DNA of 64,000 nt, taken from assembly GCA_040954595.2 (NCBI GenBank), contig CM082580.2, positions 3,958,783 through 4,022,782 of the forward strand, written 5' to 3'. The first letter of the stretch is position 1. Every line of letters begins with the position of its first letter. Source of the stretch: Balanoglossus misakiensis. Lineage: Eukaryota; Animalia; Hemichordata. The notes beneath the pieces are model-generated. The model did no database searches and was not told the origin of the DNA. It saw only the letters and a program-made list of their open reading frames with translations. Below, one piece after another: positions 28,871 through 61,291 of this stretch. A program made the translations under genes and the position numbers.

Positions 28871-29009
28871 ATGGCGCATCGTTGCGGGAAAAGTCGTCAA
28901 CAAACAGACCGTGGAACTGTCGCACTAGTTTTTCTCGCTGTTGTTTTTGTATTCATCACTGATCAGGGCGCAAAGGCACAGACTGCACCAACACTTCCCC
29001 CAAATTATG
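28871..29009 (+). CDS. Receptor exon 1: signal peptide
   Basis: [46 protein letters not shown], then G|gtaagt; phase 1 matches the 35140 acceptor. Confidence 0.75.
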
Positions 29010-33258: not shown

Positions 33259-33291
<33 letters not shown>

Positions 33292-36200: not shown

Positions 36201-39200
36201 ACCAGAAAAAGGTGACCCTCCCTTTGACAGGCAAAAAATTATTATGACACCCCCCAAGGGGGGGGGGGGAAGACGGGGTATCCCCCATGTATTTTCGCCA
36301 GTTTATTCTCCTGATGAGTGAGTCCAGTGACTCACGAAACATCGTTGTAGAGATTATGTACATGTATGTATGTGTGTGTTTGCATGTTTTCTTTAAGAAT
36401 ATTTCTAGGTTTCTGGGTATGTTTTTATGTAAAATTATCAAAATTATGCCAGTTTATTAATAAATTACTGGTGTAAATTGTGTGTGTATCAAATTTAAGG
36501 TTCCCTAGATTTGTATTGGAATATGATTCCTGATATAGAATATTGTCACATGTATAATGTGCATGTATTAATTCTGTCTAAAGATATCAGACTGCCAGTG
36601 CCACTCACTTTTATCATGTCAAAAGCTACCTGGCCTGACAACATCAGCTGTGTCCACTAATTTATTCATCTTCTTGTTACAATTTGCTTTTATTTTTTTC
36701 TAGATCATCATTGAAGGTGTAGTGGGAGATGGCATTAGAGGAGACATTGCAATAGACGATACATCGTTCTCAGGAAATTGTTATGCAGGAGGTAATATCA
36801 GCTGTCAAAGTCTCTCCCTCGCTGCCCTTTTCCCATTAATTATGTTTGATACAAGACACCGTTTATATTATTCTACATGTGGATATATAGTGAATCAATG
36901 TTCGACCACACACAACTTCCATCCAACTTGTAGACACGAGAAGGAAAAACTCGCCAAAATGAATAATCGGTGTTTACCATTTATTCATTTTGGCGGGATT
37001 TTTACTCTCATATCCTACAAACGAGATGGAAGTTGTGTGTTGTTGAATGTTGATTCTCTATATATCCACATGTAGAATAATATAAATGGTGTCTTGTATC
37101 AAACATAAATTTTGACACATGATGACTGACATATTCGGGCAACAGTGTATTTTATAACACACCATGCAGCGAACCCTCGATCGTGATTCGTCAATACGAC
37201 GTCACGTGACCTTAGTCATTTCGAACTGTTGCCTTGGGCATCAGTTCGATCGGTTTGGTGTGTTATAAAACACATGATGGCTGACATATTCGGGCAACAG
37301 TGTATTTTTAATGACCTCGGGACTGCCAGTCACACCAAAACAGTCTGTTTTCCCTCGGGCTATGCCCTCGGGAAAACAAGACTGTTTTAGTTGTGACTAG
37401 CAGCACCCTCGGGCATCAAAATACACTGTTGCCCTCATTGTCAGTCATCATGTGTATATTGATGACCGAGGGCGCTGCTAGTCACAACTAAAACAGTCTT
37501 GTTTTCCCGAGGGCATAGCCCGAGGGAAAACAGACTGTTTTGGTGTGACTGGCAGTCCCGAGGTCATTAAAAATACACTGTTGCCCGAATATGTCAGTCA
37601 TCATGTGTATTATAACACACTAAACACGGCACACACCACATCCAGGCAACAGTACTGGGCAGAAACTGATCGAACTGATGCCCTAGGGAACAGTTCGAAA
37701 TGACTAAGGTCACGTGACACCATATTGACGAATCACGATCGAGGGTTCGCTGCATGGTGTGTTAGAATATTTGATGTAAATCGTCACACTGCAGCCTAGG
37801 TGCACTGAACCACCGAGGTCACCAAAATACTTCTTGAGAATAATCAGATCAACACTGCCTCTCCTTTCCAATTTGTTGTTTACAGTCGAAGGCAAAGTGC
37901 GCCTGGTCAGTCCCAGCAGCACCGGTGAAACCATTGAAGGCCGAGTTGAAATATACCATGGCACAGAATGGGGAACGATTTGTGGTTATACTGGCGTCTG
38001 GGATGCTCTCACTGATGGAAAAGTTGTATGCCGACAGCTTGGATACACTGATGCGGAATCGACTACAGCATCGTACTCGGCAGACTCCAGTGTCCCGTTT
38101 CATCTGGACAATGTCACATGTATAGGAACAGAGCAGAATTTAACGCAGTGTGGTCACAATGGATGGGGTGTAATACGTTCACGGTGTGATCATCTTTTTG
38201 ACGATGCCACAGTCAGGTGCACTGGTAAGTGAACAGTTCTTTGCAGATCAAATGTCTTGTACCTGAGCAGGGCTGCGATACTGTTTCTAAAAGAATTATA
38301 AGTCAGCTTGTACCGATATTTGTTTCTTTGATATTGAAATGATATTCCATCGCGTTTCGTTTGCTTTCCTGATGAGAATACGAAATCACATGATCCATAC
38401 TGTTATTGACATCTATGAGAAAGAAGAAAAAGGATTCAAGTTGAAAAGCCAAGACTAAAAGGAAGATCTTGACTTTTAATGAATGGATAGATGGATGGAT
38501 GGATGGATGGATGGATGAATTTGTTTGATTTTGATGATTGTCTGTTCTTTCTGTTTCACAGAAAATCAACATTGTAGTTTCATAGATATCGTAAACGTTC
38601 TCCTTAGCAACCGTTGCCTAGCAGTACGACTCCCACTGTATTCTTCTTGACATCTTTTCTCTTGATGACAGATTTGGCCCCACCGCCATGTCACCCTACT
38701 GAGTTCACTTGCTCCAATGAACAGTGTGTTTGGCTCTCTCAACTGTGTGACTACACTGATGATTGTGGTGATGGCAGCGATGAGAACCCGTCTCTGTGTG
38801 GTAAGGTTTAGAGTTGACTGCCAAATCAACTACCCTGTTTATTATTGCAGTTTGGTTCGATCCTATTGTTTGGAACCATGTGGTTGAATCCATGAACTGG
38901 CAAATGGGGAAGACAGGGTGAAAAAAATACAATTTAGGCGCAGTAGATAGGTATCAGTGATCATAGGAGAAGAGTTACCAGTAATGATGATTTTGTAAAT
39001 TAAAAACTTGACATATTATTCTTTTATTGTATTCAGAATGTGAACATTGGTAAATTTACATTTTATACTGAAGTCTACAGTAATGTTAACCTGATATTGA
39101 GGATTTCATGTATATTTGTCTGTTAGCCTGTGTAGCATTCTAAAACAGGAGCTGTCATAATTATGTCATTCTGGCTTAGGAGGTTGATTTTGCAGTCATT

Positions 39201-42200
39201 GCTCACTGTGCAATATGCATCTTTTCATAGCGTTGGAAGATTAATAGCCTGGTTTTACAAATGGTGAATTCATTAGCAATTTTAGGGTCTTGTTGTTTAT
39301 TACCTTATTACTAGTCAAATGTTTGCTTTTGTTTTGGTTTGATTAACACTAATTTTTAGCATGCATGTGTTATTTTAGAATACCATGTTATTGTTTCTTT
39401 TGCAGACTCGTATCCTGGTCGATGCAATTTTCAGGACGATCTCTGTAATTGGATACAGTTGCCCACAGACGATTTTGACTGGTCTCGTCACAAAGGATCC
39501 ACACCCACTCCAAGCACAGGTCCCACATCTGATCACAATGGTTACACCGGTAAGCAATGAGTTACACAGCAAGTATAAAAACGACAAATGGTATAAGAAA
39601 AAAATAAGATTGGTGAATGGAGAGTCAGTGAAGAGATTACGCTTAGTCTTGCCTGATTCATTTCATAAATTGGAGGGAATTTCTAGCAGAGAGAGTATTC
39701 TCAAACCCAGATAAAAAAATAATTCAGAGATAATGCAAGCTTTCAACACATAATGGTACATGTAAGCAGGAAAACTTGTTGCTTCTATTTTCTTTTCTGA
39801 GTAGCATGTTATACAAGTTAAAGCCCCAGTAGCTGCAACTTTTCACCTGTTTAAATTGATAAAATACTTTAATCTTCTCCTTATCCTAAATAATAGTAAG
39901 AACATTTCAGTGATAAATATTCCTTGTGTTTTGTTTTTCTCAGACCATTACTACATGTATATGGAAGTAAGCAACAGGCCAATTTACAATATAACTAAGC
40001 TCGCCCTTGCACAACCATTTCAACCTACAACTGATGGCACGTGTAAGGTAGGTCAATAAAACATCCCATTGTTGTTTTGATAACAGTTGCAACGTTAGCA
40101 CTAAGCTATTTTTCTTGCTCCATATTGCCATGTAGATATTAGATATGCATTGTGTATTTGCCATATTCTGGCACAAAATATGTTCCTTTTTTGAAGTGAA
40201 GGGGTCGTCGCGCTGCATTTGTTTGTTTATAAACATTACAATTCATCCACAAATCCCTGAAATTAGATCATTCTTAGAATGAACGAAGCAGCCAATCATA
40301 GCGTAGACTGGGCATGACAGCAACTGAAGATCCTGGTAGGTTGTGGTGACTGCAGTGAGGTTTGTGCTGGTATGGGAGGGCATATTCTCATCAAAGGGGG
40401 ACACCCACGCGACACGACGACCGCTTCCCTGTAAATTGTGGCAATAAAAGAACGAATATGAATACTTTTCTATTTCAATTTTATTGCACAATTTTGTGGG
40501 CTTGCATATTTTTTACATCATTACTTTCATAAGAGAGAATGAGACAATTCTTGATGTTTTTGTTTATATATCACAATAGATACGTTTCTACTACCACATG
40601 GACGGAAATGACATCGGTTATCTGAAGCTGCAACAACTTGGCATGACAACACACACAGTAACCACAATATTTGAGAAAACTCGGGAGGTTGGAAATGATT
40701 GGGAATACGAACAGATTTCACTGACAAGTGATGAGAGTTTCCAGTTGTATTTTGAAGGTCAAGTAGGTCGGAGCCCAGACGGCGATATAGCTTTTGATGA
40801 TGTCTCCTTTTCTGTGAACTGTAAATTAGGTGTGTGTGCTTAAAAGTTTTTCTTCAAATATATTTAAAGATATACGGTCACCTATGAAAAATTAGCTATA
40901 GTTACCATGGCAAATTGAGATCTAGCCAATCACAGATTTTCAGTGGGTGGCACACGCGAAAAAAGAGCGCCACCATATGTTTTACAGAACACTCAAATAC
41001 GCTATTTCAGCCATATATGGGTGTATGTAAATTAGGGGTGACTGTATACCTTTAAGGTAGAATGCGCCTTGCAAATAAAATCCCATAATCTTTTTCTCAT
41101 ATTTGGCCCAAGACTAATAGAATCTCACACTCCTAAGGACCTGGGATCGTATTTCTCACACGAGTTGGGGATTTTTTGTCCCACACGAGCCGCAGGCGAT
41201 TGTGGAACAGAATTATTTTAATTGGACTGATTGACTATTTGAATTAGACTGTATGAACAATACTTAGGCCATTTTTCCAGCATTTCTATTCTGTGTTTAC
41301 CAAATGCAATTTCTTGTTCTACTCCAAACATCATGCTAATATAACCAGTACTCCACCTGTCAACATAGCCTGTTTGTGTGTAACAGCCATTGTTATTGTT
41401 GACAAATGAATTCTAGTCCGGACTTGAATTCAAATTTTGCACTATCACAATATACATATAGTTAGTTGAACAAGAAACTGCAGTAGATACACAAAACAAA
41501 ATACTGAAAGCATAGCGAAAAGTTACAGCTAATGGAGCTGTAATCCAAAGTGGACTGAATTTGACAATTACTTTTTCCCGGTGTGATGTTGATATCCTTT
41601 TATACATCACGAAACCACTAATACATACTTCTGCTGCTAGCCGCCACAAACATTTTGGACATTTCTGATCTCTTCTACCTGTATGTGTTCCTACAGACAA
41701 CAGCACGTGTGAATTGCCAAGCAATGAACCAGTGTTCAACTGTACAATTAGCGGGGAATGCATTTCTGATGAACACACCTGTGATTACCACCACAATTGT
41801 TTGGATGGTACTGATGAGATGGCAGATATGTGCAATTCAAGTAAGTGACCGTAACACTTCCGCATTCACTTCTCTTTTAGAAGTCATGAGGTCCATATTG
41901 AGTGCCATAACAGAGGTTCCGTTAGATGTTTTTCCTATGCATAATTTACTTTGCGTGAAATGTAACAAAACTGCGTACGTAGGTAGTTGAAAGCCTGTGA
42001 TAGGACACCACTGTACGTTGTTGCAAAGTTTAATCTGTCATGTGGCCTGAGCGAAAATTGCAACATTTCTGTGCGTAAATGTTGTAAAGTTACGTGCATG
42101 TTCGCGTTATTTTAAGCGTGTATAAACCCTTGCTCAATAGAATTTGTATATCTCTACTGGCTAAAGTCAATGCGTCAAGTTGCGTAATTATGGTCTGAAA

Positions 42201-45200: not shown

Positions 45201-48200
45201 CTCATTTCAAATTGAATGTTTGAATTACAAATTCTTTGCAATGGAATTTATGTGAAATTTTGGTGTGCAGTATACTAAAAATGGCTATAAAAATTTCTCT
45301 TGCCACTAAAAAATCCAGGCCTGGCCTAAATGTAATGATGTTTTTTCACTGTTTACTAAAGGTCATTATAAGAGCAAGCCGGGGAACAGACAATGATGGA
45401 CGTGGTGATATTGCAATTGATGATCTCTCTTTTACTAAAGGATGTGAACCCAGAAATGGTAAGACATGCGTTCAGAGAATGGTTTTTGTCAATTACACAT
45501 TTCAACATTTCTATTCATTATTTATTTATTTATTTTTCACATTTCATGACTTAAAAAAAATTAGTTTTAAACATTTGTAAACTGTATTATTATACATCTA
45601 GTGCCGAGAACAATAGATTTTGGCGTGCAATAAAAAGCCGTACGGAACGGTACGTACGGAACGCGCGTTAAATAAGTTTTAGGTTTCAAGGCGCCCCAAC
45701 TCACCGTGTACAGGTATGCGTTGTTATGCGGACGGTTTCAAGGGGCCCCCACTCCAACGCACGTGCGCACACGTAAACAAAAAACAAAGATGGCTGCTCA
45801 CTGAGTCAACTGAGCGGTTTTCGATCGATTGTATCGGCATTTTTGGCGTTTTGAAAGCCAAGTAACATGCAACACAAGAACTAACGGAGATGTAAGATGT
45901 ATAATAATAAGGTTATTACGAAAATACCGCAAAGTATGCACTCGGACATTACCGCAGCGCATCGCCCTCCGCTACGCGTCGGGCGATACTTGGCGCTAAT
46001 GTCCTCGTGCATACTTTGCGGTATTTTCGTAATAACCTCATATTATTCTTCTGATGTTTGTTAAAGTTTAAGAATTTGTTGTAATTTTACATGTCAGTGT
46101 GGGTAACACTCGGATACACTTGCACAGATATATTTTAAAGTTGGGCAAGGCCATGTACAACATGACTTACATTATGCATGTAATCATGAAAACATTGACA
46201 CTGTACACTAACCAAGACCGTTTATCATGTTTAAGTTGGCACAAAGTCAAAACAGTAGAGTGAGATTTCTGTATGATTTTGTTTAAAGGTATACGGTCAT
46301 TTATGCAAATTGAGATGTAGTTACCATGATAAATTGAGATCTAGCCAATCATGAATTTTCAGTGGGTGGCACACACAAAAAAAAAGAGTACCACCATATG
46401 TTCTTTAGAACACTCAAATATCAGTAAGTAAGTTAGGGGTGACTGTGTACCTTTAAGGGAATTTCCTGCAACCATTTCAAATAGTTTGATGTCACATTCA
46501 TGTGTGTAAAACATTTACATCCTATTTAAGTCAGTATGGGAGCAACAATGCCAGTGGCGCTATTTTCTGTTTGACCCCCTCAGATCTGCTACCACCTGAT
46601 CTGGCAGATGGCGTTCGTTTGGTGAATGGCTCCGGAACACATGAGGGAAGACTTGAGATTTTCTACAGTGGCCAGTGGGGCACTGTCTGTGATAGTGGAT
46701 TTGGTATGCCTGATGCGACTGTGGTCTGTGCTCATCTAGGTAATTGATTTATTGTGAACTTCAGTATTATCTGTTTTGCTTTTTGAAGGAAGAGAGGTAC
46801 TTTGTTTTCATTTGAATAGTTTGGTTTTTTGTTACATATCTATGTTGTCTCACATAAATATATACCGGTACATTGAACTAATGGCTTTAAAGGCCGATGT
46901 ACTATCCCTCACACCAAGCCCGGACTTTATTGAAAAGATAAGTGAACCAGTATAGTGTAAACTGGTTTTGGTTGTTGGGATTTGTGATCACTGTCACTAG
47001 GTAAATTAAGACAAAGCATAGTACAAATGCTAGTAATATATCAAGTGAAACAAAAACCACCAAGTAAACAAACTGAAAAGTTGTTCATATATGAGTCAGC
47101 CAATATTTACCACACACATTATGACACATATTGGTACAAGCTACCTCTCCACAGCTAGGAGGTATCTCGAATAACCTCCTTTCAAAGTCTCCTCATTTTA
47201 CAGCATTTCCAAGCTGATTAAAATCAGATTTAGAGTTGGCTCGGATTTTAGCTCCCATATGGTATATGTGTATATACACCAGTGGGACCTTATGGGATCG
47301 CTTGTGTCTATGTGTATGTATGTATGGATATATGTTTACATTTTGATGTTCGCTTCTTGAATGTCCACCCTTCTAGAGACAACATCCGAGAACAGAACAG
47401 AACAGCAAAGAACCAGCAAATGTAAAGGCCTGTTCTACATCTGATTTTAATCAGCTTGAGCGTTTTCTTTCTTCCACTTGGAAGTATAATATCAAGCCTG
47501 TGGCTAACAGTGGTACTCCACACAAGAACATAAATAATACTGGTATGTATTATGTTGTTTTGCAGGATATGATGCAGCCATCACTTATGTTGGTCAAGCA
47601 CATTTTGGCAGAGGATCAGGAAAAATATGGCTGACTGATATGCAGTGTAATGGGGATGAGACATCCTTATTTGATTGCAGCCATAGCGACTGGGATGATG
47701 TAGGTTCTTGTAGCCATGGTGATGATGTTGGTGTTGTTTGTAATACCACAGGTGAGATGTGGGGTACCTCTGATATAAATGTAAAATGTAATGTAAAACT
47801 GACCACAAATGTAAAACTCCCATCCCAATTCAGTTCAAGTGTGAATCCCAAAATTCCATTATTTGTATCCTATAAGTTTGGGAGAGCCAAAGATAAACCA
47901 TTTTTAAAGTGCTATCCTCATATTTGTAGCATTTTTTCCAAAAACCGTAATTGGCAACATGAAATGTTTGTGTCTGTTGTCCTCTAGAACATGTTCATTT
48001 TTTAGAGTTCTTTATGGAAATAGTGTTGCTCATTTCTAATGAATATATTGATTTGTAATGAATGAATAAATGAACTAATGAATGAAGATATGAATTACTG
48101 AGTGAGTGAGTGAGTGAATGAATGAATGGGTGAATAAGTGAATGAATGAACGAACGAACGAACGAACGAATGAATGAATGAATTGCTTTGTACTATATGT

Positions 48201-51200
48201 TGTTGATAGGTACATCTGGCCATGCCATGCGGTTATCAGGAGGACGTCCTGGAGTGCCGTTTGAAGGAAGAGTTGAGATGATACATGCAGGAAAGTGGGG
48301 CACCATATGTAACACCACCTTTGGTCGTCAGGAAGCTGGTATGCATTTGTTCTATCTTTGGTGATTTTCAATATGTTCTACTAAATGTGTGGATTGGCAT
48401 TGCAATGCACACATGCTAGTGTTGCACGAATGAATGCATGGACAGCTTCACTGATGATATACTGTAAAACGAGTTATTTTCATGACAGGGAATTTTCGCG
48501 ATATCAAAAGAGGCAACTGTTACGCGAGGATTAATTTTTGCATTCTCGTATTTCACTAATTGCGTCGTTATCTCCGAAAAACATTTTATGCAACTTTTTA
48601 TTTTCACGTTTTGGGGGGCTCGTGTATTTCGCGAAAATTTGTTGCTCGCGAAAATAACCTGTTTTACAGTAGTCAAAATCATAGCTCAGAATGATCTTAC
48701 ACCATCATTGACAAGGAATGATTTATCAAATTTCTCTGTGGTCACTTATCAAAATCTTATTTGTAGAATGCTGACCAGGATGTTGCATAAAATGGATAGC
48801 AAATTGTGATTGTAATATGACTTTATCCAAGACAAAAGTACACAATGTACTGGTAGAAAATCAACACTTGCAGGTGGACATGCCATATTTTGTAATGAAT
48901 GCTCAGTAATGATATACATCATTTTTTCTCTTTTCCACATTGACGTTATTAGCTGTGATCTGTAAGCAGTTACATTATGATTATGTGTATGAAATCAAGT
49001 CATTCGGAGCAGGCACGGGTGAAATTCATCTTGGATATCTTGATTGCTGTGGAACTGAAGATTTCATCAATGAGTGTAAACATTCTGCATGGGGTCAACA
49101 TTCTTGCGATCATTCCCAAGATGCCGGTGTTGTCTGCAAATGTAAGTACGCTTAGTATGTAGAACCAAAGCGACATCTTATGGCATATGTGATATTACCA
49201 TAGTGTGGCTAAAATTTGCTGATGACATACCAGTAGTCAGGCAGATCAACAGTACTGCATCACTGATGACATCAGCACATGTACTGATGACATAGTCAGA
49301 CAACCACAGTACAGCATCACTGATGACATCAGCACATGTACTGGTGACATTGTGTGTGTTTTCACACCTTACAAAATGTATCATCTATTTCATGGATAGT
49401 TGAGGGGGGAATTTACGTTATTACTATCTACTGTGCTCTACTGTGTGCACATATATTTTTTCAGGTAACATTTTCTGAACTGTTACCTGATCATAACACA
49501 CCTATAGTACAGGATACACAAAATGTTCTTGAAATTTATCGCATATTGACCTACTAGGAGAGCATACAGCTGTGACCTAATATCTACTTGAGGAAAAATA
49601 ATCTCTCTGTTCCCTGACGCTAAAGGCCAAGAGAAACAGTCCATTTGGGAAGGGATGACTCACAAACCTTAAAAGAAAGAGACAAACATCAAGCTTTTTA
49701 CTCAAATATGGCCAGTCAATATGTTTTCTAACACCTCAAGAAGTTTTGCACTCCAAGTCAATAAAGTATAAATGAAATTTTTGTCAAAGTTTACAAATTT
49801 GTTAATGAAATATCTCTTACTTCTTCTATTAAGACTTTCCAATTTTAGACATCAGAAGTAATTAATCTTTTCTTCTCTTGATTTCAGCCAATGACCATCC
49901 TCAAGAAGGCCACACACGTCTGGCAAATTCAAACAAGGATTATGAAGGCAGATTAGAAATCTACCATGACCATGAATGGGGCACGGTTAGTATCATTTCA
50001 GTTTTCACCCTTTATCCCCTCCAAGTTTAAATGGAACAGTCTGTTTTTTACCCAGAAACCAATGGATGTACAGTCCTTCACAAGATCATTAGATGCTATT
50101 AGATTCTTAACTTAATTATTTTGAAACTAAATGTTTCATTATGTGCGCATCTTCATATTATCTTGTCAGTGCCTATAGTTTGTATACACTTGATTGATGT
50201 CATGTGTTTGTCTCAGATCTGCTCTGATGGTTGGACCGTTACAAATGCTGATGTAGCATGCCGTGATCTGCTGTTCCACTATCCGTTGATATACCAGACG
50301 TCTGAGTTTGGACAAGGCACTGGAAGTGTCCACCTCAGCAATGTAAGTATACAAAGTCATCCTTCCAGGTACATTGTATGGGGAAATAAATAAACAATAA
50401 CCCCTCATCGTAGGCATGTATACGTGAGATTTGTGTACAATCAAATGGGAGCACCGTGTCCTTGGTGCTATTTTTCTACATAGGTGACATGAAGTTTTCA
50501 TAATGTATCAGTATCATAAGGCCAGAGTAAGTAAATTCTTTTTTTTTTGCGCTTCGCATGTGTTTGTTTTCAGAGGTTTTAAGAAAAACACACACACAGT
50601 TTTCTTGGGAAATTTTGCTCATGGACAATATTGTGTCACAAAAATAAGCCATGACTTTCATTGCACCAACATACTTCTTTGTGCAGTCACATGACAGCCA
50701 TAGAACCACTTGGCAATGTAAAATGGCCATGTCAAATCACTACAGGAACTTGCATAGCATGACAAAACTGTCAATGAAGGCATTTTTGTGTTGTGTATGT
50801 GATTTATAAGCACTTAGCCGTCTACCTTTCATAATTTTGAGTAGACGCAAAACAAAGAATTTACTGACTTTGGCCTAACGTAGCTATATGGCAAAATTTA
50901 AAATTCCTGCACTACCTTCTCAGTGATAAGAATTCTCATATTTGCATATATTATAATATCAGTACGTACATTTGTATGAATATTGAGGATGGAATATTGC
51001 ATGCTGACCCTGCCAATCTCTGTCTGTCTCCATTTCAGGTTGATTGTGATGGTACTGAACAGTCCATATCTGAATGTGATAACACTGGATGGGGAAATAG
51101 TGGGTGTGCAGTGCGTCAAGATGTTGGCATTGAATGCTCTGGTAAGATTATTTATAATGACAGCATCATCATTTGTGCACAGGGACCGGACAGTACAGCA

Positions 51201-54200
51201 GAGTCACCGATTGTCATTTAACAATGCATTTCAATCTTGCTGTCTTTCATTCTATTTGAAACATTGATACACATTGTTATAGAACATATTATGTGTTAAG
51301 TACCGTAAAACAGAAAATGTTTGCGAACAAAAAATAGTCAGAAACTTCACAGGAACCAAAAAAACATGTTAATAAATAGTCACGAAAGAACAATGTGTAC
51401 AATAAAATGTTATTCAGAGATAAAGAGAAAGCAAAAATTAATCATCGCGGAATGATCGCCTCTGTTGATCTCGCGAAAAATTTGCTGTCGCAAAAATTTC
51501 CCGTTTTACAGTATTTTCTTCTTTTGGAGATCTTTAACTGTGCCTTTCACCTTCTTTTCTGCCACCCAGTCACTCCGCCATCTCTTACGCTGGTGACTTC
51601 CTCCGCTGATAATGTTGGTTGTCTACAGTTGACCAACAATGAAGGAAAGCAGGTTTGCTTGAACGGCGTGCCATCAACCACACTCGATGTCATCTGTAAA
51701 GAATTGGGATTTGAAGAAGCCGATAGGATAGACACTTCTACAAAGTGTCCGCCGTCTGCCAAACAAAGGATTATGATCAGGGTAAGTTAAATTGACAATA
51801 ATGTAGTACATGTACATAATGTACTGTTAAACATGGTATTTTGCGAGCAATAAACTCACGAAATACGCGTGAGCCAAAATAACATGAAAATAAAAAGTCG
51901 CGTAAATTTTTTTTTGGGAGATAATGATGCAGTAAATGACATAAGAGAAGGCGAAAATTAATACTCGCAAAACAGTTGCCTCTTTTGATATCGCGAAAAT
52001 TTCCTGTCGCGAAAATAATATATTTTACTGTATGTGATACAGATAGAAGCAACATGATCAACTGGTCTGCTCAGCTAGTGTCCAGTAATCTTTGCCATAA
52101 TTGCTGTTAAAGGGGAAGGTTACCCAGCAATCTTGTGTTCATCAATAAAAAATCTATGAAAAACTGATGCAGTATCCAACTTACTGATTGTACGATGACA
52201 CCCATTTGAAAACACTTGTTGTACCGTAGACGGAAGTGATGTACGTGCCTAGCACTGCACTGATGCTTTCAGGGCTTGCCAAGCTATGGTGTCAGTGTTT
52301 AAGTGTCACTTCCACTTATAACCAGTGGTTTTTAAAAGGACACCATAATGCTATCAGGGGTCACATGACATATTCTGTCCAATAACAGCATGAGATGAGC
52401 ATGGAGTATGTTCTTGGGATCTGTATTTCATACATGCTTCATGATACAGGTGTTATCAATACTATTGTGAGGTATCTTTCTAATAATTTCATTTTTTTTA
52501 CAAACCAGGCAACTTGTAGTGGAAATGAAGATAGCTTGAGTGATTGCCAGAATTATGGTTGGACGTCTGCATCAGGAAGTTTTTGCAGCGATGCAAATAA
52601 TGACCCGACGTTGGTGTGTACCCCAAGACCGACTACAACTCCAAAACCGGTAACAAGACCATCGACAACAGTGCAATCATCACCACCACCACAGTCAGGC
52701 GTATGGAGAATTGAAGTAACTGGTGGTAAGGTTTATTTGTACTTTAAAGTTGCATAATCAACTTTTAATAATAACAAATTATATTATGATTTCTGCTGAA
52801 AATTGTACATAAATTGTCTCAAATTTGAAATTCAAAATGGCCACCAACATCAATGTTATCTCTATAGAAATTTTTTTTTAGTGATTTTTATAAAAAAACA
52901 AGATTATGACCACCCTGTTTTCTTCATTGTTTCCCAAAAGACTCCTCACTCACTTAAAAATATCAAAGAAATGAAAGGTTTGGTTTCATTTTTCTAAAAA
53001 TCGGTCAAAGAGGTTCCTATACTACCAGTTGTCATTATTAGTTAGCAAGTGGTGATCCTGTTTGTATTGTAGAGAGGTGCAATGGTGGGACCTACAGTAT
53101 CGATGGCAGACATGCTACAGTCTGGTCACCCAATTATCCAAACTCGTATCCAAACAGTCTTGACTGTCAATGGTTGGTTACACTGACAGAGGGAGGCAGC
53201 ATTACTTTTCAATTTGAAGGTGAGATATTTATATTCACATCCTCATCCATAGCAGTGAATGTATCGACAACAGTCGACATTGGTTCACACACTAACAATG
53301 CAACTACCTCTATTAGTCGGTATGATGATTGATTGTTATGTACAGTGGAAACAGAAACAAGATAAATTTTGCATGTAATTTATATAAAGTTATTTGATTT
53401 TTTTTTTTAATCTAAAAAAAATTCAATTCAATTTCATTCAATCGATAATTTATTATAGAAGTATTGGGTGCTTTGTATTGTCTCTAAAATATTGCTTATT
53501 GTGAATAAAAATTCATAAAAGCGACAGTTTCAGGTTAACATTGTGACCCCTATCCATTATGTCTTCATGTACCCGGTATATCTCTTTCTGTTGTCTACTG
53601 TAAAACGGGTTATTTCGCGAGCAATAAATTTTCGCAAAATACGCGAGTCAAAAAAACATGAAAATAAAAAGTCGCGTGAATTTTTTTCAGAGATACCAAT
53701 GCAGAGAAATACGAGAACGCAAAAATTAATCCTCGTGTAACAGTTGCCTATTTTGATATCGCGATAATTTCCTGTCGCGAAAATAACCCGTTCTACAGTA
53801 TGACCGCGATGTGGATTCACACATTATGTTACTGACATTGTATAATGTTATTTTCTTGCTTTCATTTCAGCATTGCATATTGAAGCAAATGATGAACTGT
53901 CTCTAAGGGATGGCCCATCTGTGCTTTCCCATCCAATTGCTCAGTACAGAGGAGTCCATTTTCCGGATTCAGAGAAAACACTCGGTCCAAATCTTCACAT
54001 TTCCTTCATGAGTGACGCTCTTAATTCCTACACTGGATTTAAAATCCATCTGTCCAAAACTGGTATGTCATATATTTTGGTTGATTGTGTAGAACAGAAT
54101 TCCTTCAAGACTATACACTAGGGTTTATGACCCTAAATCTACTCTTTTTGTTTTCCAAAATAATGACTATGGTCTGAATTGGGACAAGGAGAAAGAGAAA

Positions 54201-54349
54201 AACAAGCACATATCATTATCGGTCAGTCATCACCTGTGTGCAAGAATCATCTGGTTTTCTCAAGCATTCTTCTTAATTCTGATGTGTGCATCAAGTATGG
54301 CTAACATCCTTGCCTTCTGATACCATCATTGTTGTTGTACACAGCAATC

Positions 54350-54396
<47 letters not shown>

Positions 54397-57300
54397 TTCT
54401 CTGTCTGTCTGTCTGTCTGTCTGTCTGTGTGTGTGTGTGTCTGTTTGTCTCTGTCTCTGTATTACTGTAAATGTAGGTTTAAAATCAATCAATTCACTAT
54501 GAAGCAAAACATTGCAGTGAATAAGCCTGTAACATATGATGTTCAATGTTAATTTTGACACTGATTCATTTTTTTCCCACTTTCAGGTGAGCCACTGCCC
54601 TTCGTATACACTGGACCAGTCGTACAACGTAAGTCTTTCTCTAAATGCATCATTTCACAGATATTTACTGATAAAATTTCATCACTTGCACAAATTTTAG
54701 CCAGGAATCATGAAGGATGGGCTAAAAAGGTTGGCAAAATAGTACGTCACAATTGACCTGTGTATAATTAATGGTGGTGTAATGTACATGATTAGATTTT
54801 GCTAGATCTCGGCTTTTGAGATAATATAAACTTTTGGGGGTTTAGGACTTCAATAATGTACAGAAAACTCTAATTTCGGAAAGCCCGTGTTTTGTATATT
54901 GCATACTTTAACTGCATTTGTATAGAAATGTATTATGTAGGTGTTTGTACTAAAATGGATCTTTTTCTCATCTGTGTTTTTTTGTGTTTACAGAATGTTC
55001 TACTTTTAATGATGATGAACCATTGGATGCCTCTTACGATGCAGATGATGGAGAGATATATTCTCCCAATTATCCACTAAAATACCCCCGTAGTTTGTCC
55101 TGTGGTTGGCTGATAATACTTGAAGAAGGCGAAAAGATTGAAATTTCACTAGAAACCCTCGACATAAAAGATGACGACACACTAACAATCTTTGATGGAA
55201 ATGGTCAGTCTGAAGACAAATTAGTGGAGTATCCACAGAGTTTACGAAGAAGAAGACGATCGGACGAATTGGAAACAGTAACCACCTCTGATAATTTGGC
55301 AGTTGTGAAATTTGTGACAAACGCTGTCAATGAAGATGATGGATTTTCAATGAAGTACTCAGTGTCTGCAGGTAAACAGTTTGAAGATATTTTGTTTTTC
55401 ACTTGATACTTTTACATTGTACTTTGTAAATGTCAGCCTGTTATGGTAACTTGTATTATATTTGCACTCAACCAATCGCATGTCTCTTGGTACTGTACGC
55501 TTTCTAGTAGGAGGTGCAGCTTAAATTTTGGAAACAAGTTTTTTGGATTTCAAAATCTTACTGTCAATGTTTTATCATTGGCATGCATGTGTGACAGACT
55601 TATTTTGAAATTTTTACAGTTGTAAAATTAATTTAATTCAATTCACACTGACTTAAATAATAGGTTTTTGTTATAAAAATCTCATGGAATGGTCAGATCC
55701 TCGCCATTGTTTTTGCAGGAAATGCAACACCTGACCCTATAACTGAGGATCCTCCTGGTAATGGTCAATTGATAGGTGCAATTGTTGGTTGTGTTATTGT
55801 CGCCATCTTGATTTTAGTCATAATTCTGTTCATCTTTGGATACAGACATTATAAGAAGGGAAGGTGAGTTCATTTTGTTCACTTGCAGTTGTCCTGTATA
55901 TGATGTCACCAATACAACTATGTATAAGCACTTGATTTATAAACTGGGCAAGTGACATTTTGAGCTGAGACCAGCAGATGCTGATATGCATGATTCACAT
56001 TAAAGATATACAGTCACCAATGCAAATATACAGTTACCATGGTAAATTGAGATAAGCCAATCACAGATTTTCAGTGGGTACCACACGTGAAAAAAAAGAG
56101 TGCCACCATATGATCTTTGGAACACTCAAATACGCCATTTTAGCCAAATATGGGTGTATGTAAATTGTAAGTAAGACTTTAGGCCATGGATTGACATCTT
56201 GTGAACAGTTTGATACTGTCAGCTGGCAGTATTGAAGCATTTTGCAATAAATGCCCTGGAAACGAGGGATGACACCATAGCAAATCACAAGTTTGACGTT
56301 TGTATCAGAGTCTTTGGGTTTTAAATGTTTCTTACTGCTGCTGGGTTTTCAATATGTTTGTTTATACATTGGAATTTAACATTAACATCTAGACACTGTA
56401 AAATTAGAGGGAGCTAGTCAGCTTTGGTCAATTGGTGCATGTGTTTTGTTTCAGGCCAATATTTGGTCAGGAGAGAGCAACAAGGTATGCAGAACAGATT
56501 GATTCCGGATCTGTTCAAAACGTCAACCATCCAGAGCCTGTGTATGATGTGATACCAGGAGGTAAGTTTGTACTGTCAGATTGTACTATGTAGATGGGGT
56601 TAGATGCTGGGGCTGTTTCGGTGAAATTCTTGAAGCAATCCAAACATTTAGGGAAAGCAGATCTAGACGTAGACATAAGGACGTAGACATACGATGATGT
56701 CAAACAAAGAAAAATATCATGGGATTATAAATTATACGACAGAAATTAAGTACCTGCAGTTCACCAATGGTATTTGCAGAATATTGTGAATATGGCAGAT
56801 ACCCCATAGAATGAATAAGAAGTACTGGTAACACTTAATACTAAACACAACTTTGGACCGTTCGTGGTCAAAGTGTAACTCCTATTCAGTCACTGAAACA
56901 TTAAAATTTAGCTATAAACAAAAGATGATGATATGTTTGCATTTAAACCCCCCCCCCCCCTCCCAATTTCAGAATCCCCCTCGGGAATTTTTGCAATGGG
57001 GACTGGTCCCCCTTAGACTCTGTCACAGTCCACGGGTCGCTACAAGGCTCTTCACTGATGCGCCCTCAACCATTTAAAGCAAAGGAGAAGTCACATATAG
57101 TGTTGTGTAGCGAACCTCTCGCCGGGCACACATGCAATCACAGACCATAAGCCTGCATGGACGGCGAGAGGGGCTGTGAGAGAGTCTAGTCCCCACTCCC
57201 CCTAAAGCATCCTAGATGAAAAACTGAGTCAGACAGTCATGTAAATGTTAATGTTTTTAATCAATGCATTGATCAGCTTTTCATCTCTTCCACTACCAGA

Positions 57301-60208
57301 AGCGCCACCACCGTACACTTCCATGCCAAATGTCAATCAACCACAACAAGTTATAATCAACGGCTGCTCCGTAGCATTCAACAACCGGAATTCTGGTGTG
57401 CCCAGCGCCCCTCCACCACCCCCAGATGTCAATGGCCATGTACCACAAGCACCCCCTATGTATCGAAAGACTCCACTGGACGATGATCACGGTTATGAAA
57501 CCCCACAGCCAACAAAACCAAGTATCTATGAAAGACCGCATGCGTATGACAGACTGAGTAATGCTCACGGATATGAGACCATGAGACGAGGTGTTCTTTT
57601 GGCAAATGCAAATGGTGACGATGATTTGAAGAAAAAGAGTGAAGCCTATGTGAATTTACCACCAGACACAAGACAGGCACCTGGCAATGTTGGTTGGTTG
57701 AATGCAAATATAATATATACCATAACTGCTGCCTTTTAATGTTAAGATTTCTCCATTATAATTCAAAATTCTCTCTTCTCTCTCTCTCTCTCTCTCTTTC
57801 TGTCCATTTGTGTCTTGGTGACTTTTTTCTCTCACAGTGCATTTCTCCTAACTTTTCCCACAGTGTATCTGAAACAGTCTGACGGTAACGCAAATAGACT
57901 GCTTCATCTTTGCCACTTTTATTTGCCCATCAACCATGCATGCCCAGAAATACTCCGTATTAACTCTCTTCATGTGATATACTGCTTTACAGATAAAAGA
58001 CTTTATCAGTTTCTCCTTGACCTTGAACTTGAACACCATGCTGAAAAGTTTGCCCAGGAAGGCATCAAATATGACGACCTGCTTACTATGGATCTCCACG
58101 TCCTTAGGGACATTGATGTTCCTATGGGGGACAGAAAAATAATCAAGAAGAGAATCAAGAAACTCAGGAGGGAAACAGAGCATGAAGTATGTATAGTTTT
58201 GTCTTCTTCTTTTTTTCGTGAAGTAAGGAACCGTTAAAAAAAGACGTAGGCTATCTTCGTGATTATCCCACAATGACTGAAGTTTGTCGATTGGTGTGAT
58301 TCATAAGTGACAATCAGTAATGCTTAGTGAAATTCCTCAGGAAAAAAAAAACTTTAGATCTCCAGTTTTTAACTCCCCTCTATGATGCATTCCAATAACC
58401 TATAGTATTTAGAATTACTTTGTTACAAGGCTTATTATCACCACTTTGCTTTTTAGTCACGCCACTTATTGCAATCATGTTTTGATACAATTTCTTTCCA
58501 AAAGTTGCAGGCAGGTAACCATGGCAATGATAATATTCCCAAAGAAATCAAGGTGCAGGAAAAGAGAGTCAGCCATGGTGTTGATTATGTTGATGCAAGG
58601 TCATCTCAAACTCAACTTACGGTATATAAAATGTACTCTGATGTGGTATATCTGTAAATGGGTGTTCTTCAAGTCATCACATTGCATGCTTCATTCCCTC
58701 AGCTGTTCTATTATAGATAAGGTGGGGATATGCCACATACCTCTCATATAAAAACCATACTCGTGTACTTCTAAACACTCATGTGTTATATTTTCACTCA
58801 CATCTAGTCATATAACTTTACGACAACATAATCTGACTAGAATCCATTTTGAAACTTGAACCATAGCAGTGCATCTTTCTTCCTTCCCCATACTGTGTAA
58901 ACTGGTAATTTTTACGACAGGAAATTTTCACGATATCAAAAGAAGCAACTATTAATTTTCGCGATCATTGCATCGTTATCTCAAAAAAACCCACATTTTT
59001 ATGTGATTTTTTTATGTTCGCGTATTTTGGGCTCTCGCAGTTTGCGAAAATTTATCGTTCGTGAAAACTTCCCATTTTACAGTAAATGTGATTGGGACCA
59101 TTGAACTCATGTGGCATTTACCCATCCATCTATGGTAGAACCCAACATTGCATGGTCCTCCATTCTCTCTGCATGTGAAATACCTGACTAATAAATTTCA
59201 CTGCATGTGTTTGTGTTTTGTCTATTAACTTGTACTGTACCTTTCAAACAGCCTTATCACACAGATGACCAATCAGTACCCCGTCAACCAAGTATTCAAG
59301 TTGTCAAGCCAGTTGATGGCAAACATCAACGGCCCCAGGTACTGAAACTGTAGATAGATATCTGAGAGAAATATCATGAATTGCTAAATTGACATTTATG
59401 TGATGCGACATACCAAATAGGCACTTTCAGGAATTTTTTTTGTTATTATGAAAGTCCTGAATCCCCCAAAATTTATATTTTCTGAACCCTTTCACCCCCA
59501 GTTCCCCATATAGAGGTCCAACTCTACCATTGTAAACAATGGATTTGGGTCAAACCATGATGGTGAAAGGGTTCAAGGTCCGATATAGGAAAACCTAATT
59601 ATGTACCTTATACAGAACCATAATTTATACAGTGGTCATCCATGGCACGTGTTTTCTAATGAACCTTGTCTTTTCTCTTTGGAGTGTGGTTTCTTTAATC
59701 TGTTGGCTACTGTTTACCGCCCTCTATGGCATTGTGTAGTTGGTTATTTTGTTTTTTCTTTTGACAGAGCCATATGTATGATGAGGTGAAGCACGTAGAT
59801 TATCCAATCCCTGACAAGTATTTATGTCCTATCACAAGTAAACTGATGGTTCATCCTTTTACTGCAACCGATGGCGTTACTTATGAGAGAGAAGCTATCG
59901 TTGGTAAGTACAACAAAACCGCAACCCTTCTGAAAGTCAGTGTGAAGAAGCTGGAAATTGTAATTTTTTTCATCAATATTTGTACCATTTCAGATTGGTT
60001 CAGCAGGAGCCCTACTTCCCCAGTGACAAGGCAACAGTTGTTTGACTTCAAATTAATGCCCAACACTGAACTTGAGAAGGAAATTCAGAAGTTCAGAAAA
60101 GATAGGAATAAGTCACTCAAGAAGAGGAAGAAGAAGGAAGAAGAAAGACGATTTCAAGAAGAGTCGGAGAGAAGACCAGACACTCCTCTGACAGATGTAG
60201 AAGTCTAA
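28871..60208 (+). CDS. Large type I membrane receptor: SP-MAM-SRCR-LDLa-MAM-LDLa-MAM-SRCRx4-CUBx2-TM-(Tyr/PPxY tail)-SAM-U-box, 35 exons, ~1941 aa
   Basis: Exons 28871-29009, 35140-35384, 35857-36024, 36704-36791, 37886-38224, 38672-38800, 39406-39549, 39944-40047, 40580-40829, 41697-41840, 42339-42482, 43691-43788, 44166-44333, 45362-45458, 46584-46739, 47566-47751, 48210-48338, 48953-49141, 49888-49985, 50217-50342, 51039-51141, 51570-51781, 52509-52725, 53073-53219, 53871-54062, 54587-54628, 54994-55371, 55719-55863, 56455-56561, 57300-57692, 57993-58186, 58505-58621, 59252-59338, 59768-59903, 59994-60208. All GT-AG, every phase compatible, 5826 nt with no internal stop seen. Confidence 0.85.
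30358..30462. repeat. (GTACT)n microsatellite
   Basis: Direct reading. Confidence 0.95.
34886..34982. repeat. Near-perfect ~45-bp-stem inverted repeat (hairpin/MITE)
   Basis: TTCTTAGCTGCAATGATTGTAGCAGGTGCTGCTAGGTTGACTGGT-gtgcaaa-ACCAGTCAACTTAGCAGCACCTGCTACAATCATTCCAGCTAAGAA. Confidence 0.85.
35140..45458 (+). CDS. Receptor N-terminal ectodomain: MAM1, SRCR1, LDLa1, MAM2, LDLa2, MAM3
   Basis: Three MAM signatures ([21 protein letters not shown] / FYYHMYG / GDIAIDD), [20 protein letters not shown], and LDLa [26 protein letters not shown] and [20 protein letters not shown]. Confidence 0.93.
35428..35600 (+). mobile_element. Interspersed repeat fragment with (CCGT) microsatellite core (HINE/pearl-like)
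   Basis: GAGCTTTT..CTGTCTTCCGTCCGTCGTCCATCAACATTTTCTTC..TTCTCTGAAACTGCTGGTCCAATT. A related fragment lies at ~63810-63890. Family assignment is from memory. Confidence 0.45.
36304..36356 (+). ncRNA. Minimal type I hammerhead ribozyme motif (intronic, sense strand)
   Basis: Stem I TCTC 36307-10 / GAGA 36350-53; core CTGATGA 36311-17; stem II GTGAGTC-cagt-GACTCAC 36318-35; GAAA 36336-39; short stem III ACA-tcgt-TGT; cleavage triplet GUA 36347-49. Confidence 0.8.
36806..37107. mobile_element. Palindromic MITE family B, truncated copy
   Basis: Matches the 61292-61635 element (CAAAGTCTCTC..CGCTGCCCTTTT..TGATACAAGACAC..CACAACTTCCATC). Confidence 0.8.
37113..37768. repeat. Nested multi-level inverted repeat (~610 bp foldback)
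   Basis: 37152-37250 is the reverse complement of ~37665-37765, and 37258-37420 of ~37458-37620. Each inner arm is itself a hairpin with apex CCCTCGGGCTATGCCCTCGGG. Confidence 0.85.
40195..40430. mobile_element. MITE family A, second copy (inverted relative to 5985-6227)
   Basis: Reverse-complement match over ~200 bp (ATAAACATTACAATTCATCCACAAATCCCTGAAATTAGATCATT...); TIR GAAGGGGTCGTCG. Confidence 0.75.
40868..41051. mobile_element. MITE family C, TTAA-flanked
   Basis: TTAA-AGATATACGGTCACC ... GGTGACTGTATACCT-TTAA; further copies at 46287-46452 and ~56004-56165. Confidence 0.8.
44426..45040. mobile_element. GC-rich non-autonomous Tc1/mariner-type element with TA flanks
   Basis: TA-CCGTAGTTTGCCGGGTAAGAGCCCC ... 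GGGGTTCTTACCCGGACAACTACGG-TA; internal direct repeat GGGGGGGCTTTAG.CCGGATATGGCCTCGA. Confidence 0.8.
45585..46047. mobile_element. Repeat with subterminal inverted repeat and long terminal hairpin
   Basis: TATTATTATACATCT (45585) / AGATGTATAATAATA (~45895), then palindrome 45904-46047 (AGGTTATTACGAAAATACCGCAAAGTATGCAC..GTGCATACTTTGCGGTATTTTCGTAATAACCT), apex CCCTCCGCTACGCGTCGGG. Confidence 0.65.
46287..46452. mobile_element. MITE family C copy
   Basis: TTAA-AGGTATACGGTCA ... GTGACTGTGTACCT-TTAA; shared core AAATTGAGATCTAGCCAATCA..TTTTCAGTGGGTGGCACAC. Confidence 0.8.
46584..52725 (+). CDS. Receptor SRCR domains 2-5 (5th divergent) plus Pro/Thr stalk
   Basis: [27 protein letters not shown]; [17 protein letters not shown]; [21 protein letters not shown]; degenerate [20 protein letters not shown]; stalk [16 protein letters not shown]. 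Confidence 0.92.
48057..48183. repeat. (GAAT/GAGT/GAAC)n microsatellite
   Basis: Direct reading. Confidence 0.9.
48460..48671. mobile_element. MITE family D (TA-CTGTAAAAC...GTTTTACAG-TA)
   Basis: TIRs with TA flanks; core AATTTTCGCGATATCAAAAGAGGCAACTG. Confidence 0.75.
49218..49350. repeat. Short tandem duplication (~57 bp x2+)
   Basis: ACAGTAC.GCATCACTGATGACATCAGCACATGTACTG.TGACAT occurs twice. Confidence 0.8.
51301..51513. mobile_element. MITE family D copy (diverged)
   Basis: TACCGTAAAACAG ... CCGTTTTACAGTA. Confidence 0.6.
51822..52032. mobile_element. MITE family D copy
   Basis: TACTGTTAAAC ... TTTTACTGTA; core CAGTTGCCTCTTTTGATATCGCGAAAATTTCCTGTCGCGAAAATAA. Confidence 0.75.
53073..55371 (+). 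CDS. Receptor CUB domains 1 and 2
   Basis: [33 protein letters not shown] and [41 protein letters not shown]. Confidence 0.9.
53596..53800. mobile_element. MITE family D copy
   Basis: TACTGTAAAACGGGTTATTT ... AAATAACCCGTTCTACAGTA. Confidence 0.8.
54349..54460. repeat. (CTGT)n/(CT)n/(GT)n compound microsatellite
   Basis: Direct reading. Confidence 0.9.
55719..55863 (+). CDS. Receptor transmembrane exon
   Basis: [49 protein letters not shown]: ~25 hydrophobic residues followed by a basic stop-transfer segment. Not in the ORF track. Confidence 0.9.
56004..56165. mobile_element. MITE family C copy (3'-truncated)
   Basis: TTAA-AGATATACAGTCACC.. with the same core sequence. Confidence 0.7.
57993..58186 (+). 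CDS. Receptor cytoplasmic SAM domain exon
   Basis: [55 protein letters not shown] fits the SAM consensus L..FL..L.L..(Y/H)...F..E.I....LL....L..I.(V/I)..G.RK.I. Confidence 0.85.
58891..59083. mobile_element. MITE family D copy
   Basis: TACTGTGTAAAC ... CATTTTACAGTA; core ACAGGAAATTTTCACGATATCAAAAGAAGCAACT. Confidence 0.7.
59768..60208 (+). CDS. Receptor C-terminal U-box (E3 ligase) domain and basic tail; two exons
   Basis: [32 protein letters not shown]|[34 protein letters not shown] matches the U-box consensus (P..F.CPIT..LM.DPV...DG.TYER.AI..W.....TSP.T...L....L.PN..L...I). Ends ..TDVEV-stop. Confidence 0.93.
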   Translation, partial: SHMYDEVKHVDYPIPDKYLCPITSKLMVHPFTATDGVTYEREAIVGKYNKTATLLKVSVKKLEIVIFFINICTISDWFSRSPTSPVTRQQLFDFKLMPNTELEKEIQKFRKDRNKSLKKRKKKEEERRFQEESERRPDTPLTDVEV

Positions 60209-61291
60209 ACATTAGTCTCGAGTTGACACAGAGACAAATCATACAGTTGTATTTTCATGGTGCAAAATAATTTGGTATATACTAAACAGAGGTACTTGTA
60301 GCATGGAAATCATGAATAAGACCTGGAAAAGGTATGGTAACCATTAACCCCTGAGCAGGCATTGTGTTATTACTGTTTCCAGGTCTGATCGATAGTTTCA
60401 AAGGTATATCAGCTAAAGTACCCTGGAAAACATTAATTAATTTCAAGACAAAGAAGTGAAATGGGTGATTTTGTGTCATATACAAGTATGGACGCCATGT
60501 CTACATTTAAGCAGAACTTTGTAAGTTGTATATCAAGTTTTCTGAAAATCATTATAGTTTATCAGGTACATAATTACCACAAATATCAATATCTAGGAAT
60601 GGACTGCTAACTTACAGTGTGGCATTCCATATTGATGCTCTTTAAAGAAGATAAACAGATCAATGTTCCATAGAACCTTAATATTTACAAGTTTGTAAAT
60701 AATTGTCAGTAATTTTTTTTTTTTTGGCAGATTGCGGTCTTGGAGGAAGACTGCAATTACATGTGTATGAGCAACTCATTTTGACTCAAAAATTGTCAAT
60801 TTTGTAATTTTTTGACGTGATTCTGACTCTGTGTGTAGTGGTATCCACTGATCATAATGATACTTTCTTTGCTTTACAGTTATGATCATGACTTGTATTT
60901 TTACCCCCAAAAATTCATGATAGTATACTTGGTATTACAGACAAAAACCACTTGGTTATGTCCAAGAGTGACTGTATCTCAATGGCAATGTCATCTTCAC
61001 AAATGTGAATTTTTAACAAAGAACAAGGGGGTGGAACAGTTCTGTTGACTTTCGTTATTTCCACATCAATACATATAGTTTTTTTAATAAATAAACAAAT
61101 GATAATTGACCTATCTTCATGCATATCAATGTTAAAAAAACATAGTTATATGATTAACTTTATAAAACCAATAACTTTTTTAATTGTAAACATTTATCCT
61201 AAAAAGTATAATACAATTCCATTCCATCCAGCAGATTACCTGCATAGTACCTTTATTGCATATACCAAAGTATTTATACAGATAATATTAA

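Follow-up and report, generated by a model that had tools for sequence, protein, structure and literature searches.

Receptor-like E3 ligases set the sensitivity of cells to signals, and few of them have a known ligand. The locus described here raises the question of whether a scavenger-type receptor ectodomain and a cytoplasmic U-box are encoded as one chain in an animal genome and, if so, what such a protein would do. It lies in a stretch of 64,000 nucleotides of the acorn worm Balanoglossus misakiensis (GCA_040954595.2, contig CM082580.2, positions 3,958,783 to 4,022,782 of the forward strand), hereafter the window, for which a preliminary description had proposed a cell-surface U-box ligase. 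An earlier survey of animal U-box proteins distinguishes seven families and, in the accessible part of its text, names no membrane member and uses the word 'transmembrane' zero times (Marin 2010; PMC3087547), whereas the family outlined below is predicted to sit in the membrane.

Gene model and predicted ectodomain

A hand-built exon model of the region 28000-63999 joins 35 exons on the plus strand into one reading frame from the ATG at 28871 to the TAA at 60208 (5,820 nt, 1,939 aa, no internal stops), and all 34 introns are GT-AG and phase-compatible. Splice sites were scored with a leave-one-out matrix against 1,948 decoy GT and 1,662 decoy AG sites within the gene span. Relative to these decoys, 31 of the 34 donors and 27 of the 34 acceptors reach at least the 90th percentile, with medians of 99.5 and 99.0, respectively. 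The lowest-scoring sites are the donor of exon 30 (79th percentile) and both ends of exons 32 and 33 (66th-84th). Given that the exon 30 donor is weak and that read-through of this exon reaches a stop at ~57739, there may be an isoform that lacks the SAM and U-box. For exon 30, a GC donor at 57683 was also considered and was dropped in favour of the GT donor at 57692, which fits the Ptychodera length better.

All 35 exons are collinear with the RefSeq protein XP_070566353 (P0152) of Ptychodera flava, with 1,257 of 1,939 residues identical in a global alignment and 62% identity over residues 1-1939 by BLAST. Furthermore, each of the 35 exons has its match, in the same order, in Ptychodera isoform X1, and the junction between exons 30 and 31 is in frame exactly as in that species. 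Searching the 64-kb window by tblastn with five family proteins gave no second copy or minus-strand match, and AATAAA is not enriched between the TM exon and the stop (two observed against 3.5 expected). It is almost certain, judging from the sequence, that receptor ectodomain and U-box are fused in one predicted chain. The exons, domain counts and coordinates of the preliminary description were reproduced by this independent model, and its view that they form one gene is borne out by the end-to-end collinearity with the Ptychodera protein.

Pfam was run exon by exon on 34 of the 35 exons and on a read-through of exons 34-35, exon 26 (14 aa) being too short. The resulting order is MAM-SRCR-LDLa-MAM-LDLa-MAM-SRCR x4-CUB x2-SAM-U-box, giving three MAM, five SRCR, two LDLa and two CUB domains. 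Only two hydrophobic segments appear in the hydropathy profile, a signal-peptide-like one at aa ~11-36 (peak 2.0) and a TM at aa ~1494-1517 (peak 3.6), which supports the type I, single-pass receptor layout suggested earlier.

The ectodomain features, all on the plus strand, begin with exon 1 (28871..29009), which holds the start codon and the signal-peptide-like segment and is identical to the P0152 N-terminus at 17 of 46 residues. MAM 1 is encoded by exons 2-4 (35140-35384, 35857-36024, 36704-36791; Pfam MAM on exons 2 and 3), SRCR 1 by exon 5 (37886..38224; E 1e-21) and LDLa 1 by exon 6 (38672..38800; Pfam Ldl_recept_a, E 1e-10). MAM 2 follows on exons 7-9 (39406-39549, 39944-40047, 40580-40829; Pfam MAM), LDLa 2 on exon 10 (41697..41840; Pfam E 3e-5) and MAM 3 on exons 11-14 (42339-42482, 43691-43788, 44166-44333, 45362-45458; Pfam MAM on exons 11 and 13). 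The three MAM repeats have an acceptor site at the same codon and 68-78% DNA identity around it (35854-35894, 40577-40617, 44163-44203), a likely trace of internal duplication.

Exons 15-23 (46584..52725; Pfam SRCR on 8/9 exons) encode four further SRCR domains and a linker: SRCR 2 (46584-47751), SRCR 3 (48210-49141), SRCR 4 (49888-51141) and SRCR 5 with a Thr/Pro-rich linker (51570-52725). SRCR 5 is divergent, with Pfam E-values of 4e-5 and 5e-3 for the two exons that encode it. CUB 1 and a short linker occupy exons 24-26 (53073-53219, 53871-54062, 54587-54628; Pfam CUB), the linker being identical to P0152 at 8 of 14 residues, and CUB 2 occupies exon 27 (54994..55371; Pfam E 1e-15). The AlphaFold2 model of CUB 2 matches CUB folds in the PDB and places five arginines (aa 1436-1440; 55245..55259) in a low-confidence loop, 84-90, between strands. 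This loop is kept in the window, Ptychodera and a Glandiceps protein (P0060) and is absent at that place in coral. By the furin consensus, the polyarginine run is taken as a candidate furin-type cleavage site; on the model, cleavage there would leave three strands of CUB 2 on the membrane-bound piece.

Cytoplasmic tail and U-box

Exon 28 (55719..55863) encodes the single TM helix, with its hydropathy peak of 3.64 at aa 1499, followed by basic residues, and a TM is found at the equivalent place in every family member that covers this region. The Tyr/Pro-rich tail on exons 29-30 (56455-56561, 57300-57692) is predicted to be disordered, the matching region of a Glandiceps tail (P0001) having pLDDT under 50. 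In that AlphaFold2 model (mean pLDDT 54.8), the first 200 residues are disordered, the SAM is confident and the U-box is of mixed confidence, followed by a long helix. The window tail contains two PPxY motifs (aa 1564 and 1613), five YxxPhi motifs, a YxxM (1653) and a YVN (1678); the roles given below to these motifs and to the PDZ-type end are those commonly ascribed to them.

The motifs were compared with chance using 5,000 shuffles. PPxY is present in 5/7 tails tested, coral among them, and its count is reached by 1.8% (window) and 0.8% (coral) of shuffles; the five YxxPhi of the window tail are reached by 1.5%. YxxM occurs in 4/4 long ambulacrarian tails and is above chance in the window (1.0% of shuffles) and the crinoid (0.2%), and YVN occurs in the three hemichordate tails, YxN alone being at chance level (59%). 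The coral and amphioxus members keep ectodomain, TM and U-box without SAM, YxxM or YxN, and both amphioxus proteins also lack PPxY.

The SAM domain is encoded by exon 31 (57993..58186; Pfam SAM_1, E 6e-7), and the P0001 model finds its best fold matches in SAM domains, those of the SAM-PDZ-motif proteins SANS and ANKS4B ranking first. It is present in the window, Ptychodera, both Glandiceps genes and the crinoid Antedon, and is absent from both amphioxus proteins and the coral protein. Thus, clustering via SAM, which had been put forward in the preliminary description, cannot be the core mechanism of the family and would be at most a lineage-specific add-on. A two-copy SAM prediction scored 0.00, a value with no bearing either way on self-association.

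Between the SAM and the U-box lie two phase 0-0 linker exons with weak splice sites, 32 and 33 (58511-58621, 59252-59338). Exon 33 is identical to Ptychodera isoform X1 at 10/29 residues and to X2 at 1/29, and the X1/X2 RefSeq isoforms of both Ptychodera and Glandiceps diverge where it sits. Exon 33 is therefore likely to be an optional cassette exon, and the spacing between SAM and U-box may be tuned by splicing.

The U-box (aa ~1836-1907) is encoded by exons 34-35 (59768-59903, 59994-60208), followed by a charged helix, an RPxTP motif and a hydrophobic C-terminus. With the 90-nt (30-codon) intron between the two exons read through, it scores 58.6 bits against a Pfam cut-off of 21.4 (E 7e-16); U-boxes in the PDB are also matched. 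The family U-box profile matches PUB12, CHIP and UBE4A/B at E 1e-18 to 7e-8. RPxTP and the hydrophobic C-terminal motif occur in 5/5 complete ambulacrarian tails and in two isoforms, and TM, U-box and a final hydrophobic residue are found in the complete tails of all members except the P0060 model, which has a different end.

For the window U-box, the Arg after 'DPFN' in UBE4B, with which Arg1881 aligns, is taken to be the linchpin position. The expected contact residues were all found: Ile1845 in loop 1, Trp1870 in the central helix, Pro1878 in loop 2 and the linchpin Arg1881, the first three aligning with the same residues of the plant PUB12/PUB13 U-boxes. Across eight aligned members, the Ile1845 position is Ile or Phe in all, the Trp1870 position is Trp in seven and Tyr in the crinoid, and Pro1878 is Pro in all. 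The linchpin position is Arg in the window only, Lys in two, Asn in four and Gly in one Glandiceps copy. The contact positions derive in part from the accessible text of two papers (PMC13061254; PMC12326332), and the second indicates that Arg is the best linchpin, yet that the Asn-bearing RBX1 is active (PMC12326332). U-box ligase activity is likely from these residues, and the cytoplasmic U-box of the preliminary description looks intact, with its score above the Pfam cut-off.

Relatives across animals and origin of the fusion

A HMMER search with the U-box region against 1.84 billion representatives returned 1,158 matches at E <= 0.001. The best 150, together with two cluster members, were compared with the model by BLAST, and Pfam was run on 27 of the 150. 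Ectodomain, TM and U-box occur together in five of these best 150 of 1,158: Ptychodera flava (P0002), Antedon (P0052), Branchiostoma floridae (P0108), B. lanceolatum (P0075) and Glandiceps (P0060). Six others of the 150 are short fragments that cluster with the U-box of the coral (92/91). A profile search gave 309 matches, of which the best 120 were examined; a U-box was found in three (P0002, P0052 and P0254 of the coral Stylophora pistillata), the other 117 being MAM proteins without one. Among the matches listed, Ptychodera is the closest relative (62%), and no vertebrate or protostome members occur among the best 150 of 1,158 or the best 120 of 309. Two further proteins of the 150, Glandiceps P0001 and Saccoglossus P0006, consist of the tail only; these RefSeq models (389/415 aa for P0001/P0151 and 87 aa for P0006) are probably incomplete.

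Stylophora P0254 is collinear with window aa 53-1516 (34%), aligns again over the U-box (37%), and has the order MAM-SRCR-LDLa-MAM-LDLa-MAM-(SRCR)n-(CUB)n-TM-U-box, as in the window. Two coral Logan contigs, 5,497 and 5,706 nt long, code for chains of 1,535 and 1,528 aa that extend from LDLa 1 through the TM to the U-box; this leaves almost no room for introns, so that they appear to derive from spliced RNA. Ahead of MAM 1, P0254 also shows an extra N-terminal cysteine-capped segment (aa 1-130) followed by a basic RKRR site, and a WSC domain takes the position of SRCR 5 in the window.

Other searches were less productive. A word-indexed search with the U-box read-through gave none of 1,597 candidates at E <= 0.001, and one with the P0002 tail gave three proteins, the only family member being P0002 itself. 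The ESM Atlas returned generic U-box clusters for the U-box and no usable match for P0002. Two different SAM-U-box tails (P0060 and P0001) are found in Glandiceps, both on a contig of 29,028,597 nt, which indicates at least two family copies in that animal. One JGI/IMG protein, P0040 (983 aa), represents another kind of receptor-like U-box protein, with a repeat ectodomain, a cadherin-like domain, a hydrophobic segment and two U-boxes.

The members carry the database names DMBT1-like, MALRD1-like, Neurotrypsin and WDSUB1. The RefSeq names DMBT1 and MALRD1 hide the ligase domain. MALRD1 has MAM and LDLa in common with the window, which is no MAM/LDLa-only array: it has three MAM plus SRCR, CUB and U-box. 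DMBT1, as defined in the accessible text of PMC5119243, shares SRCR and CUB, and Pfam detected no C-terminal ZP on the window exons or P0002.

The architecture minus SAM is not wholly new, having been listed for Acropora in 2016 (PMC5119243). The supplement of that study includes A. millepora c000424 and A. digitifera aug_v2a.03894 as 'SRCR+CUB' entries with UBOX, and from the supplement and Table 1 an A. millepora transcriptome entry of 1,948 aa has the MAM/SRCR/CUB-TM-U-box order (Neubauer et al. 2016; PMC5119243). The entries are filed as DMBT-like, and in the accessible text UBOX is mentioned once and no receptor-ligase conclusion is drawn (PMC5119243). Compared by listed domains, the Acropora proteins resemble the window in domain order and are likely orthologues; they have no SAM, and WSC stands in place of SRCR 5. 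This was the only record of the architecture found in full-text searches of a mainly open-access literature (PMC5119243). No functional study was found in that literature. The claim of novelty made in the preliminary description therefore needs dividing: homologues do exist in hemichordates, a crinoid, amphioxus and corals, but no characterised protein was found in the literature searched. In the accessible text of a sea-cucumber preprint the sole mention of 'U-box' concerns a THAP protein; Table S3 of PMC13228809, a source accessible in part, could list holothurian members.

Whether the fusion arose once was addressed with domain rankings and trees. The window MAM domains were ranked against 1,157 MAM matches, from a set including the 1,213 MAM domains of 117 other proteins. 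For MAM 2, ranks 1, 2 and 3 go to its counterparts in Ptychodera, amphioxus and coral. The counterparts of MAM 1 rank 1, 17, 20 and 21, and those of MAM 3 rank 1, 61, 247 and 523. Judged from sequence, MAM 2 (39406..40829) is the best orthology marker. When the family MAM domains were placed in a tree together with the 34 MAM domains from outside the family that are closest to them, four of the five MAM 1 (those of the coral, the crinoid and two hemichordates) formed a group at 92/78, a branch at 64/72 had all five MAM 2 on the same side, and MAM 3 showed no grouping by position. Monophyly of MAM 1, 2 and 3 was not rejected by the AU test (p-AU 0.33, 0.51 and 0.24), and none has starred support.

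For the U-box tree (73 columns), 60 of 210 domains were taken as top scorers with the family profile, seven near-copies having been dropped first. All 13 family U-boxes fall within an unstarred group of 16, their monophyly not being rejected (p-AU 0.58). The U-box of P0135, a WDSUB1-like one to judge by its sequence, also falls among the family U-boxes in this group, in a set without named WDSUB1. Given the identical domain order together with the MAM rankings and the MAM and U-box trees, a single origin of the fusion before the cnidarian-bilaterian split is likely, though not proven. The SAM, the tyrosines of YxxM/YVN and the polybasic loop of CUB 2 were probably acquired later, in the hemichordate-echinoderm line.

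The locus is thus predicted to be a conserved gene of an unnamed family, of the receptor-like E3 kind, with a U-box and a scavenger-type ectodomain. This membrane U-box ligase layout appears to have persisted in corals, amphioxus and acorn worms alike, where the names given to it in databases are misleading. It is testable in established models such as amphioxus, Ptychodera and corals, and in Nematostella if a copy is confirmed. One extra Nematostella U-box gene, with no similarity beyond the U-box, is noted in the accessible text of the earlier survey (Marin 2010; PMC3087547). The family would also bear on how corals accept or refuse symbionts.

Candidate functions and neighbouring genes

A single chain with a signal-peptide-like segment, extracellular domains, one TM and a cytoplasmic ligase domain has the layout of a receptor-like E3. 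The ectodomain of RNF43/ZNRF3 is a PA domain, in contrast to the 1,450-aa scavenger-type ectodomain of the window, which also differs in having a U-box instead of a zinc RING. Neither PA nor zinc RING, by which RNF43/ZNRF3/GRAIL members would be recognised, was found by Pfam on the window exons or P0002. In RNF43/ZNRF3 and in the MEGF8-MGRN1 and ATRN-MGRN1 complexes (10.1101/2020.05.25.113944, in its accessible text), as in the window, a cytoplasmic RING-fold ligase is paired with an extracellular domain and one TM, and the logic of targeting surface proteins for ubiquitination is likely shared. Unlike MEGF8-MGRN1, the window has its ligase fused in one chain. WDSUB1 (WD40-SAM-U-box) resembles the window in having a SAM followed by a C-terminal U-box, as far as the accessible texts describe it (PMC3087547; PMC10238197), and the source of one amphioxus member gives it the name 'WDSUB1'. 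In the window, however, a signal peptide, ectodomain and TM stand instead of WD40, and Pfam found no WD40 repeats on the window exons or P0002, so that assignment to WDSUB1 is not indicated. Because SAM is missing in coral and amphioxus, the SAM-U-box pairing in common with WDSUB1 may be convergent.

By analogy with these ligases, we put at about even the chance that the protein acts as a receptor-like E3, sending itself, its cargo and membrane proteins clustered with it into endocytosis and lysosomal turnover. The ectodomain would bind a multivalent ligand, which could be a microbial surface or a membrane protein of the host, and binding would cluster the receptor and a partner. The U-box would then recruit E2~ubiquitin and modify lysines on the receptor or partner. 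Ubiquitin, the YxxPhi motifs and PPxY-bound NEDD4-family ligases could route the complex to endosomes and lysosomes, and a PDZ scaffold at the C-terminus might position the receptor. The parts common to members from coral through hemichordate are the ectodomain, TM, PPxY, U-box and PDZ-type end.

The receptor-kinase analogy of the preliminary description, with an E3 in place of the kinase, is not new, having already been drawn for receptor-like E3s, and in the accessible account RNF43/ZNRF3 and MEGF8-MGRN1 clear surface receptors (10.1101/2020.05.25.113944). Clearance is rated above signalling for this reason. WDSUB1, a SAM-U-box ligase, is described as ubiquitinating the surface protein USH2A via a PDZ scaffold (PMC10238197, accessible text). 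In the accessible account of the membrane protein CYYR1, its PPxY binds WWP1 and routes CYYR1 to lysosomes. A ligase with a scavenger-type ectodomain would link recognition outside the cell to membrane-protein turnover in one chain. That microbe or symbiont binding is coupled directly to ubiquitination is, by comparison, doubtful.

It is possible, if somewhat unlikely, that the protein is instead, as the preliminary description held, a signalling receptor, in which ligand or microbe clustering would lead the U-box to build non-degradative, K63-type scaffold chains and tail tyrosines phosphorylated by kinases to recruit SH2 proteins, switching on immune or growth pathways. The SAM with a PDZ-type end presumably resembles Eph receptors, which was counted in favour of signalling, as were the Tyr-rich tail and the distribution and above-chance frequency of YxxM and YVN described above. 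The SRCR/CUB/MAM ectodomain, moreover, has been grouped with DMBT1-like scavenger proteins (PMC5119243, accessible text). However, the SAM, YxxM and YxN are missing in coral and amphioxus although ectodomain, TM and U-box stay, YxN alone is at chance, and the receptor-like E3s treated in the accessible text of 10.1101/2020.05.25.113944 all clear surface proteins. Signalling would be best supported in the hemichordate-echinoderm line, where the SAM and SH2-type tyrosines appear to have been added.

It is improbable that the U-box is a weak or inactive ligase serving as an E2- or protein-binding module, with ubiquitination left to PPxY-bound NEDD4-family ligases in the style of CYYR1-type adaptors. 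In its favour are the retention of PPxY between coral and hemichordates, a weak Pfam match of the coral TM and tail to CYYR1 (E 0.024, below cut-off) and the variable linchpin position, which is Gly in one Glandiceps copy. Yet of the tail elements the U-box alone occurs in all members, even in amphioxus without PPxY, its core and E2-contact residues are kept, and a linchpin other than Arg is compatible with an active ligase, as with the Asn of RBX1 (PMC12326332, accessible text). Finally, two adjacent genes joined only by the exon model, or a main receptor mRNA stopping before the SAM, would accord with the weak exon 30 donor and the tail-only RefSeq models of two other hemichordates but are highly improbable, since Ptychodera, the crinoid, amphioxus and coral have collinear full-length proteins, coral contigs without introns run across CUB-TM-U-box, AATAAA is not enriched and exons 30 and 31 join as they do in Ptychodera.

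The predicted receptor-like E3 gene has recognisable neighbours in the window. On the minus strand, 4240-5861 contains exons with DnaJ Pfam matches (E 6e-5 and 1.5e-5) and a downstream cysteine run; we take this gene to encode a cysteine-string protein (DNAJC5-like). Upstream of the receptor and on the same strand, Glyco_transf_7C and CHGN matches at 21741-22115 mark a beta-1,4-GalNAc-transferase-like gene that probably begins at ~12600. Inverted-repeat elements, MITE-like by shape, are found in introns and downstream of the receptor gene (36806-37770, 45907-46041, 48454-59066 and 61288-61639), with arms of 66-188 nt that are 82-97% complementary.
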